The notes beneath the pieces are model-generated. The model was given only the letters and a program-made list of their open reading frames with translations, was not told the origin of the DNA and ran no database searches. From Escherichia coli O157:H7 (GTDB lineage: Bacteria; Pseudomonadota; Gammaproteobacteria; Enterobacterales; Enterobacteriaceae), in NCBI RefSeq assembly GCF_013167455.1, contig NZ_CP038328.1: 64,000 bases of DNA. The stretch is one strand, 5' to 3'. A program made the position numbers and the translations under genes. Below are positions 5,077 to 28,946 of this stretch, piece after piece (position 1 is the stretch's first letter; every line of letters begins with the position of its first letter).

Positions 5077-6934
<1,858 letters not shown>

Positions 6935-6979
6935 TCGACGGACGATAGATAATTCCTGAGACAATAGTGTAAAAAACGA

Positions 6980-7017
6980 GCCGCTGGGGGTGTTTTAAAC
7001 CCCAGCGGCTTTTTTTT
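6980..7017 (+). terminator. rho-independent terminator after lrhA
   Basis: 10-bp GC stem gccgctgggg/ccccagcggc followed by 8 T. Confidence 0.8.
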
Positions 7018-7019
7018 AG

Positions 7020-26750: not shown

Positions 26751-27212
26751 ATGATTGAATGGCAAGATCTGCATCACTCTGAATTATCGGTTTCCCAGCT
26801 TTATGCCTTATTACAACTGCGTTGCGCGGTGTTTGTTGTCGAGCAAAATTGCCCTTATCAGGATATCGATGGTGATGATTTGACGGGGGATAATCGCCAT
26901 ATTCTCGGTTGGAAAAATGATGAACTGGTGGCATATGCGAGGATTCTGAAAAGTGATGATGATCTTGAGCCGGTCGTTATTGGTCGGGTGATTGTCAGTG
27001 AAGCGTTGCGTGGCGAAAAAGTGGGGCAGCAACTGATGAGTAAAACCCTCGACACTTGCACGCATCACTGGCCTGATAAGCCTGTCTACCTCGGGGCGCA
27101 GGCGCATCTGCAAAACTTCTACCAGAGTTTCGGTTTTATCCCTGTGACGGAGATCTATGAAGAAGATGGTATCCCACACATTGGGATGGCACGCGAGGTA
27201 ATTCAGGCGTAA
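26751..27212 (+). CDS. elaA: GNAT-family N-acetyltransferase ElaA
   Basis: 153-aa ORF, acetyltransferase fold motifs (RGEKVGQQLM). Confidence 0.9.
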   Translation: MIEWQDLHHSELSVSQLYALLQLRCAVFVVEQNCPYQDIDGDDLTGDNRHILGWKNDELVAYARILKSDDDLEPVVIGRVIVSEALRGEKVGQQLMSKTLDTCTHHWPDKPVYLGAQAHLQNFYQSFGFIPVTEIYEEDGIPHIGMAREVIQA

Positions 27213-27266
27213 TCAATAACCCTTGTCTATAGTTAGTGACAGGTTTTACGCAAATGGAGAACGAGA

Positions 27267-27572
27267 ATGTCTAATCAGTTTGGTGATACACGTATCGATG
27301 ACGACCTGACGCTGCTTAGTGAAACACTGGAAGAGGTGCTCCGCTCCTCTGGCGATCCCGCCGATCAGAAATATGTTGAGCTGAAAGCGCGTGCAGAAAA
27401 AGCGCTGGATGATGTGAAAAAACGGGTTAGCCAGGCTTCAGACAGTTATTACTATCGGGCGAAGCAGGCTGTTTATCGTGCTGATGACTACGTCCACGAA
27501 AAACCCTGGCAGGGAATTGGTGTGGGTGCGGCCGTTGGGCTGGTACTAGGACTGTTGCTGGCACGCCGTTAA
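27267..27572 (+). CDS. elaB: ribosome-associated tail-anchored membrane protein ElaB
   Basis: 101-aa ORF with C-terminal hydrophobic anchor (GVGAAVGLVLGLLLARR). Confidence 0.9.
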   Translation: MSNQFGDTRIDDDLTLLSETLEEVLRSSGDPADQKYVELKARAEKALDDVKKRVSQASDSYYYRAKQAVYRADDYVHEKPWQGIGVGAAVGLVLGLLLARR

Positions 27573-27585
27573 AACCTCCCTACAC

Positions 27586-27616
27586 CGGGGTACTGCATTT
27601 TTTTTGTAGTACCCCG
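27586..27616 (+). terminator. stem-loop after elaB (9-bp stem, T-rich loop)
   Basis: cggggtact/agtaccccg stem with T-run inside the loop; followed at 27617-27622 by tataat upstream of menF. Confidence 0.4.
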
Positions 27617-27650
27617 TATAATGTGAGGCTTTTAACAGGGAGAGGTCCGC

Positions 27651-28946
27651 GTGCAATCACTTACTACGGCGCTGGAAAATCTACTGCGCCATTTGTCGCA
27701 AGAGATTCCGGCGACACCCGGCATTCGGGTTATCGATATTCCTTTCCCTCTCAAAGACGCTTTTGATGCCTTGAGCTGGCTGGCCAGTCAGCAAACGTAC
27801 CCGCAATTCTACTGGCAACAACGTAATGGTGATGAAGAAGCTGCCGTCCTGGGCGCGATTACCCGTTTTACGTCGTTGGACCAGGCACAACGTTTTCTTC
27901 GCCAGCACCCGGAACACGCCGACTTACGCATTTGGGGGCTGAATGCGTTTGACCCGTCGCAGGGCAATTTACTTTTACCACGCCTGGAATGGCGACGCTG
28001 TGGCGGTAAAGCCACGCTGCGGCTGACGCTATTCAGCGAAAGCTCCCTTCAGCACGATGCGATTAAGGCAAGAGAATTTATCGCCACACTGGTGAGTATC
28101 AAGCCCTTGCCTGGGTTACATTTAACCACTACGCGAGAACAACACTGGCCGGACAAAACGGGCTGGACGCAATTAATCGAACTGGCAACGAAAACCATCG
28201 CCGAAGGTGAGCTCGACAAAGTGGTGCTTGCTCGGGCAACTGACCTGCATTTCGCAAGTCCGGTCAATGCGGCGGCGATGATGGCTGCCAGTCGTCGACT
28301 GAATCTCAATTGCTACCATTTTTACATGGCCTTTGATGGCGAAAATGCTTTTCTTGGCTCTTCACCGGAACGGTTATGGCGGCGGCGTGACAAAGCGCTG
28401 CGTACTGAAGCGCTGGCGGGAACAGTAGCAAATCATCCTGATGATAAGCAGGCGCAGCAGTTAGGAGAGTGGCTGATGGCGGATGATAAAAACCAGCGCG
28501 AGAACATGCTGGTGGTGGAAGATATCTGCCAACGATTACAGGCCGATACCCAGACGCTGGATGTTTTACCGCCGCAGGTACTGCGTCTGCGTAAAGTGCA
28601 GCATCTTCGCCGCTGTATCTGGACTTCACTCAACAAAGCGGATGATGTGATCTGTTTACATCAGTTGCAGCCAACGGCAGCAGTTGCTGGCTTACCGCGC
28701 GATCTGGCGCGACAGTTTATCGCCCATCACGAACCGTTCACCCGAGAATGGTACGCCGGTTCTGCGGGCTATCTCTCATTACAACAAAGCGAATTCTGCG
28801 TTTCCCTGCGCTCAGCAAAAATCAGCGGCAATGTCGTGCGGCTATATGCTGGCGCGGGCATTGTCCGTGGTTCCGACCCCGAGCAAGAGTGGCAGGAAAT
28901 CGACAACAAAGCGGCAGGGCTGCGTACTTTATTACAAATGGAATAG
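27651..28946 (+). CDS. menF: isochorismate synthase MenF
   Basis: 431-aa ORF, GTG start; chorismate-binding family. Confidence 0.9.

Follow-up and report, generated by a model that had tools for sequence, protein, structure and literature searches.

Overlap of an elaB mRNA 3′-end hairpin with the menF promoter core at the elaB–menF junction of Escherichia coli

The window analysed here is a 64-kb stretch of E. coli DNA, the + strand of which corresponds to the minus strand of K-12; positions are converted as K-12 = 2408294 − window position, a relation that was verified on an identical 131-nt alignment. The genes elaA, elaB, menF and menD follow one another in this order on the + strand. The coding sequence of elaB (101 aa) spans positions 27267–27572, with the stop codon at 27570–27572, and that of menF (431 aa), which begins with GTG, spans 27651–28946; both are given by the open reading frames and by the RefSeq annotation. 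The names elaB and menF, proposed in a first-pass annotation of the sequence, are right, since RefSeq gives both to the matching stretch in 5421 of the 5426 complete E. coli genomes, in which the elaB/menF junction is found once per genome. A dispersed repeat of the REP/BIME, ERIC or MITE kind was ruled out, since the element is single-copy (across 5421 genomes, the median is a single place). The Rfam 15 covariance models, run against positions 27100–27800, gave no match up to E = 10.

A hairpin begins 14 nt past the elaB stop codon. Its stem is formed by 12 pairs, one of them G·U, between the 5′ arm CGGGGTACTGCA (27586–27597) and the 3′ arm TGTAGTACCCCG (27605–27616), the latter being also part of the menF promoter spacer (see below), and its loop is formed by seven U residues (27598–27604). 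The structure had been noticed before as a 9-bp stem (27586–27594 with 27608–27616) with a 13-nt loop containing T8. The nine pairs are present as described, but the stem extends by G·T, C-G and A-T to 12; likewise, the T8 run is there (27598–27605), but seven T form the loop and the eighth is paired. Folded as RNA of the + strand, the region reaches −20.9 kcal/mol (z = −7.3; none of 200 shuffles was as stable), and as RNA of the − strand −15.3 kcal/mol. The hairpin varies naturally within the species: in EC958 and two further sampled strains A27608C breaks one stem pair (−16.6 kcal/mol), and strain PE144 has a T7 instead of the T8 run. Three distinct hairpins with at least 12 pairs, at most one G·T and a loop of 3–10 are present in the 64 kb, compared with 0.17 in a Markov shuffle, and the combination of the hairpin with a TATAAT hexamer (see below) is not due to chance. 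TATAAT is itself under-represented in the window, with eight copies on both strands against 23.2 ± 5.5 expected. A perfect 16-bp hairpin is found at 24307–24342, 16 nt past the stop of elaD, a gene on the − strand, with a T-run on neither strand; it is another putative 3′ stem-loop lacking a U-tract. In addition, a textbook terminator (A6, a 12-bp GC-rich stem and T8; 6972–7019, canonical at 6978–7019), seemingly bidirectional, follows an ORF that ends at 6934 and makes a useful contrast to the elaB hairpin within the window. Orthologous junctions in Buttiauxella, Cedecea and the C. freundii complex also carry a textbook terminator (see below).

An elaB RNA end near the hairpin had been proposed, and two independent published data sets map one on the + strand at position 27620, directly past the stem. 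By Term-seq, K-12 position 2380674(−), which is window position 27620, is the dominant ‘primary’ 3′ end of elaB, so that the 3′ UTR up to the mapped end spans 27573–27620 (Adams et al., 2021; PMC7815308). This end has three entries, one per growth-condition tab, and is thus probably listed for all three conditions; the two read counts seen for it are 54,112 and 221,851 (PMC7815308). In SMRT-Cappable-seq of full-length primary transcripts the same position, 2380674, was reported as a ‘novel TTS’ (Yan et al., 2018; PMC6131387), and it is the 3′ end of both elaB and elaA-elaB transcripts. The elaB transcript terminates in ...GUACCCCG-UAUA, 4 nt beyond the stem. Among 30 reads from the elaA-elaB start site at 2381565, 10 stop at 2380674 and 16 pass it by at least 50 bp; the passing reads extend by a median of 199 bp, with no ends within the next 50 bp, and a read-through elaA-elaB-menF operon is also listed (PMC6131387). 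The read-through of about 60% is a figure for the 26 informative reads from this one upstream start site. The Cappable-seq 2016 and TERMITe supplements gave no match. The hairpin defines the 3′ end of the elaB mRNA.

The hexamer TATAAT (27617–27622) abuts the stem on its 3′ side and lies 28 nt before the menF GTG at 27651, close to the 29 nt first estimated. It is the −10 element of a real menF promoter, as indicated by its sequence, its conservation (see below) and a start site 8 nt downstream: the menF-menD and menF-menD-menH operons start at 2380664(−), which is window position 27630 (Yan et al., 2018; PMC6131387), 21 nt ahead of the GTG and 10 nt from the elaB RNA end. The menF Shine–Dalgarno (SD) region, AGGGAGAGG, follows at 27637–27645. 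Had RNA ends been missing near 27.6 kb and menF been transcribed only from an upstream promoter, the first-pass annotation would have been contradicted; the mapped end at 27620 and start at 27630 favour it instead. A −10 hexamer close to TATAAT with a start site 5–9 nt downstream is what a σ70 promoter has; here the hexamer is perfect, the −10 is conserved across the family and an up-mutation creates TTG at the right spacing (see below). The menF promoter is unlike a typical one in that it has no extended −10 TG, that its −35 region and spacer are self-complementary and that a −35 hexamer near TTGACA at a distance of 16–18 bp is missing. The best candidate, read from the sequence and with the evolved up-mutations inside it, is CTGCAT (27593–27598), which matches at two of six positions and stands 18 bp from TATAAT; we assign it as the −35 element by inference. 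With this assignment, the −35 hexamer would be part of the hairpin's 5′ arm, the spacer would consist of the loop and the 3′ arm, and the −10 would abut the stem. A promoter consensus scan did not call the menF promoter because the −35 is too poor, and with a perfect −10 but a poor −35 the promoter is weak. The menF start site is the first T of a TTTT run (27630–27633) that is conserved in most genera, and reiterative transcription is conceivable there, as pure speculation.

Mutations at the hairpin arose in an experimental-evolution study of an entC deletion mutant. The three fast-growing lines, obtained independently, were all mutated upstream of menF, by G>A at BW25113 position 2,374,180 (menF −58, twice) or 2,374,177 (menF −55); the site was named the menF promoter, its expression was said to be ‘de-repressed’, and RegulonDB was cited for a ‘predicted translation attenuation site’ (PMC5892946). 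Mapped on the BW25113 record, menF(−58) and menF(−55) are C27593T and C27596T on the sense strand. Both change the 5′ arm of the stem, C27593 being paired with G27609 and C27596 with G27606, and both fall within one half of the palindrome in the DNA. The log2 change of menF, by RNA-seq, was +2.69 and +2.15 in the C27593T lines and +1.81 in the C27596T line, menD, menH, menB and menE rose by +1.7 to +2.5 in the first line, and the men operon mRNA was up 3.5 to 6.5-fold across the lines; elaB is not among the entries in the part of the RNA-seq table covered here (PMC5892946). The mutation that arose twice, C27593T, changes CTGCAT to TTGCAT at 18 bp from TATAAT and raises menF 4.4 to 6.5-fold, as an up-mutation of a σ70 promoter does. 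C27596T gives rise to a TAnnnT hexamer (TATTTT) but leaves the −35 unimproved, so that a promoter-up reading accounts for C27593T only. The mutant hairpins fold with −18.6 kcal/mol (C27593T) and −16.0 kcal/mol (C27596T).

For a comparison across the Enterobacteriaceae, 80 menF loci were fetched, one genome per species; elaB lies directly upstream in 72, which together with the window makes 73 elaB-menF junctions. GTATA(A/C/G)T, a downstream GGTTTT and the SD are kept in 72 of these, the remaining one having ATATAAT. The junctions are of two types. In 50, from Escherichia, Citrobacter, Salmonella, Enterobacter, Lelliottia, Kosakonia, Trabulsiella and relatives, GGGTACTG is followed by a T-rich loop and then by CAGTACCCC, joined to the −10 (GGGTAC...GTACCCC). 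The other 23, from Buttiauxella, Cedecea, Atlantibacter, Shimwellia, Franconibacter and relatives, have a canonical terminator, AATCTTACCC-ATT-GGGTGGGA and then T9, whose T-run ends 14–15 nt ahead of TATAAT, over the −35 region. Within the hairpin type, 44 sequences that represent seven genus-level groups all share an unchanged core, GGGTACT / AGTACCC, and wobble intermediates do not occur in it. In the hairpin alignment 79.7% of the cells are paired and double changes occur at two pairs only, both in the upper stem; since the core never varies, covariation is uninformative here and lends an RNA structure hardly any support of its own.

The two types may be related by descent. In E. coli, a vestigial stem-loop with 5 bp, ACCTC / GGGGT (27574–27591; −4.9 kcal/mol), found by folding and by comparison of genera, occupies the place that the canonical terminator stem has in the other genera. 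From the alignment of the junctions, in which the T9 of the canonical terminators covers the same positions upstream of the promoter, the T-run of the loop appears to derive from the U-tract of a canonical elaB terminator in an ancestor, rather than being a working part of the hairpin, and in the lineage with the hairpin the promoter spacer would have become complementary to the 3′ arm of the ancestral terminator. The small upstream hairpin with T8 was rejected as an E. coli terminator: it is no better than shuffles at −4.9 kcal/mol, it stands 6 nt from the T-run, and Term-seq lists no dominant 3′ end there. Junctions of the C. freundii complex have a second copy of GTAC upstream, with which the hairpin's 5′ arm can form a 10-bp stem followed by CTTTTTCT; this upstream stem is called as a terminator by the scan and folds with −16.6 kcal/mol, against −16.9 kcal/mol for the downstream hairpin. 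Two hairpins that share an arm give an attenuator-like layout with three arms (L014, L015, L017–L020, L022 and L034; about 1421–1455 in L014); a sensing element, as expected of a transcription attenuator, was not found. The junction has also received insertions. One of about 125 nt in Enterobacter genomosp. O (L058, about 1310–1440) separates the anti-SD motif (see below) from the hairpin and resembles an ERIC/IRU element in its consensus; others are found at the same junction, just after elaB, in two Buttiauxella loci (L059 and L061). A contig labelled Parasutterella muris (Burkholderiales; L027) has a menF gene whose product shares 69% identity with E. coli MenF, with no elaB upstream, which may reflect contamination or gene transfer.

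Upstream of the hairpin, CCTCCCT (27575–27581) resembles the anti-SD sequence of the 16S rRNA. It can pair with the SD of menF; in Escherichia, an alternative partner is GAGG (27625–27628). The predicted helix with the SD has 10–15 bp and −17 to −27 kcal/mol in Enterobacter, Lelliottia, Kosakonia, Salmonella and Trabulsiella, and sometimes reaches the start codon; co-varying loci include L023, L028–L030, L032, L036–L038, L045, L049, L056 and others, the SD side being 27637–27645. As the start site is inside the helix, read-through RNA could hide the menF ribosome-binding site (RBS), and promoter-started RNA cannot. The co-variation suggests that read-through RNA may be translationally silenced. 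Translation of the IS10/Tn10 transposase is reportedly inhibited by a similar fold-back, as described by Davis, Simons and Kleckner in 1985. The menF case would share with it a promoter enclosed by the strands of a long-range helix, so that RNA from outside can sequester the RBS, and is unlike it in that the helix is only predicted and belongs to a chromosomal biosynthetic operon rather than to a transposon. The predicted fold-back is strong in Enterobacter, Kosakonia, Salmonella and Trabulsiella, and weak in E. coli; for the window, its effect is probably small.

How the elaB 3′ end is formed was considered from the structure and from the mapped ends. The tail after the stem, TATAATGT, has T at four of its eight bases, none consecutive, and thus no U-rich tract of 7–8 nt, and the terminator scan made no call on the 12-bp hairpin. 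With the T-run inside the loop and the U-tract missing after the stem, the hairpin is not a canonical terminator, as had been recognised at first sight. It resembles one in its GC-rich 12-bp stem, its short loop and its position 14 nt after the stop codon, and differs from one in the T-run of the loop, in its tail UAUAAUGU and in that about 60% of the informative reads pass. The release of RNA at intrinsic terminators requires proximal U residues. Stable stem-loops without a U-tract, found at steady-state 3′ ends and made by trimming, are a known class (Dar and Sorek, 2018; PMC6061677), to which the elaB hairpin corresponds in its stability, the absence of a uridine tract and a precise 3′ end immediately (4 nt) downstream, and from which it differs in that its DNA also holds the promoter of the next gene. 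Because there is no U-tract, the end is 4 nt from the stem and about 60% of the reads pass, running a median of 199 nt further, we favour this class. The hairpin would then be the 3′-terminal stem-loop of the elaB and elaA-elaB mRNA, fixing a precise and stable end mainly by blocking the 3′→5′ exonucleases that trim RNA ended diffusely downstream; the A/U-rich tail would at most add weak, leaky intrinsic termination, and a large share of the polymerases would continue into menF. Between exonuclease barrier and intrinsic release, we put the split at roughly 60:40. Somewhat unlikely, in our view, is the stronger proposal of genuine, though non-canonical, intrinsic termination, in which the stem and the A/U-rich TATAAT tail (UAUAAUGU) release a sizeable fraction of the polymerases without Rho, the released RNA is then trimmed slightly to the mapped end, and the evolved mutations, by weakening the stem, let elaB transcription into menF. 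The tail is A or U at seven of its eight positions, no SMRT-Cappable-seq read ends in the 50 bp past the site, and a canonical terminator is kept at the same spot in relatives, so that termination would seem to be under selection there. Moreover, both evolved mutations cut the stability of the stem (from −20.9 to −18.6 and −16.0 kcal/mol), and with an elaB 3′ end as abundant as the two read counts given above imply, small shifts in read-through could swamp a weak menF promoter. That Rho would be dispensable agrees with the Rho-termination table of Adams et al., which is of limited sensitivity and has no entry for elaB or menF, and which does not favour Rho (PMC7815308); a scan of early menF for a rut-like region found no strong C-over-G stretch. 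However, besides the scattered U residues of the tail and the passage of most informative reads, the end lies 4 nt past the stem instead of the usual 7–9, B2-type E. coli carry a natural mismatch in the stem (−16.6 kcal/mol), and C27596T destabilises the stem more yet raises the menF mRNA less than C27593T, although the strain backgrounds differ.

Two further readings would give the hairpin, or the DNA that encodes it, a regulatory role. That it serves as a helix within a translational attenuator or insulator, with CCUCCCU freed to pair with the menF SD in read-through RNA and only RNA begun at the internal promoter being translated, we hold to be a genuine though lesser possibility. Pairing of each species' own upstream segment with its own SD has a mean of −16.9 kcal/mol, against −15.55 ± 0.21 kcal/mol across species, with none of 5000 permutations as low, but the test ignores phylogeny, and results of this kind are inflated by relatedness. 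In five of seven genus-level groups the SD finds its best partner in the group's own upstream segment, flanking changes are compensatory (AACC/GGTT vs GACC/GGTC), and one-strand deletions are matched on the other strand. In all of the 15 species tested, the predicted unpaired fraction of the RBS is lower in read-through than in promoter-started RNA, yet in E. coli the shift is small (0.34 vs 0.48), the Escherichia helix has only about 6–8 bp (−11.5 kcal/mol), and the fold of lowest energy contains another outer helix (27570–27579 with 27623–34) that leaves the SD free. The attenuation site predicted in RegulonDB and cited in the PLoS Genetics paper (PMC5892946) is in line with this reading, but the evolved mutations are outside the anti-SD and change mRNA levels operon-wide. 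The other reading starts from the same ‘de-repressed’ mutations: the inverted repeat would also be a DNA operator, on which a dimeric repressor bound to GGGTACTGC...GCAGTACCC, across the −35 and the spacer, holds menF down, the evolved C→T changes being operator-constitutive mutations and SdiA the sole named candidate. We consider such an operator improbable, and still a little more doubtful the specific proposal that the palindrome GGGTACTG-N9–11-CAGTACCC over the −35 and the spacer is a repressor operator with SdiA as the candidate. The palindrome sits over these elements as the only obvious symmetric element of the intergenic region, its core is invariant on both arms in the 44 sequences from seven genus-level groups, and both evolved mutations, for which the authors speak of ‘de-repressed’ expression, fall in the same half-site. 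However, the canonical terminator stem of the other genera is also well conserved, with few variants, so that invariance alone proves little; genera with this terminator lack the palindrome yet keep the promoter, and C27593T is more simply explained by the TTG it creates. Lux-type boxes are CTG-N10-CAG palindromes some 20 bp long. The spacing here is N11, not N10: E. coli has CTG-N11-TAG, and other genera CTG-N11-CAG or N9–N10 variants. In favour of SdiA, there is no agreed SdiA box (PMC12086679), the right half is TAG or TCG in E. coli, where the other genera have CAG, and no SdiA effect is seen in E. coli: in assays of PmenFDHBCE fusions, sdiA lowered expression 105-fold in E. cloacae and raised it about 2-fold in Salmonella, E. 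coli being unaffected (PMC11619404). Against it, the effects are of opposite sign in two genera that share the palindrome, and may be indirect (PMC12086679). A comparable palindrome is absent upstream of E. coli fepE, which is SdiA-regulated, and of pSLT pefI, where a single GTACTG hexamer is within chance, and the published AAAAG-N8-GAAAA box was not found, by eye, in the elaB-menF intergenic region. If true, this reading would explain why PmenFDHBCE is repressed 105-fold by sdiA in Enterobacter cloacae, why it is not regulated in E. coli, whose right half-site would have decayed from CAG to TAG/TCG, and why two ‘de-repressing’ mutations fall in one half-site, and the palindrome would be the first conserved chromosomal SdiA site common to several genera.

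Returning to the hairpin as the 3′-terminal stem-loop of the elaB mRNA, the same 45 bases of E. coli DNA carry the elaB RNA end signal and the menF promoter, and we think it quite probable that the junction is dual-coded, as an elaB 3′-end hairpin at the RNA level and as the core of the menF promoter at the DNA level. A coupling of elaB termination to menF promoter activity, as suggested by the first-pass annotation, holds in so far as the signals physically overlap, but only in the sense of shared bases and an evolutionary trade-off. Each part is of a known kind and already appears in public data, the RNA end as ‘primary 3′ end’ and ‘novel TTS’, the promoter by its start site, and the attenuator as ‘predicted attenuation site’; the complete overlap, the origin of the T-run and the co-varying anti-SD helix are, to our knowledge, undescribed. 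The ‘predicted translational attenuation site’ of RegulonDB and the ‘novel TTS’ of the long reads are thereby the same object as the promoter core.

The arrangement bears on how two unlike neighbours share a junction. The RpoS-controlled and highly expressed stress gene elaB can sit 78 bp from the low-level menaquinone operon because the hairpin gives the elaB mRNA a defined and stable end and leaves a weak internal promoter to menF. The sharing of bases entails a trade-off, in that C27593T, which improves the −35, costs the stem a C-G pair, a step that laboratory evolution took when more isochorismate synthase was needed. Across the family, the anti-SD helix and the link to SdiA offer hypotheses for how menaquinone synthesis might be insulated from, or tied to, neighbouring or quorum-sensing signals.
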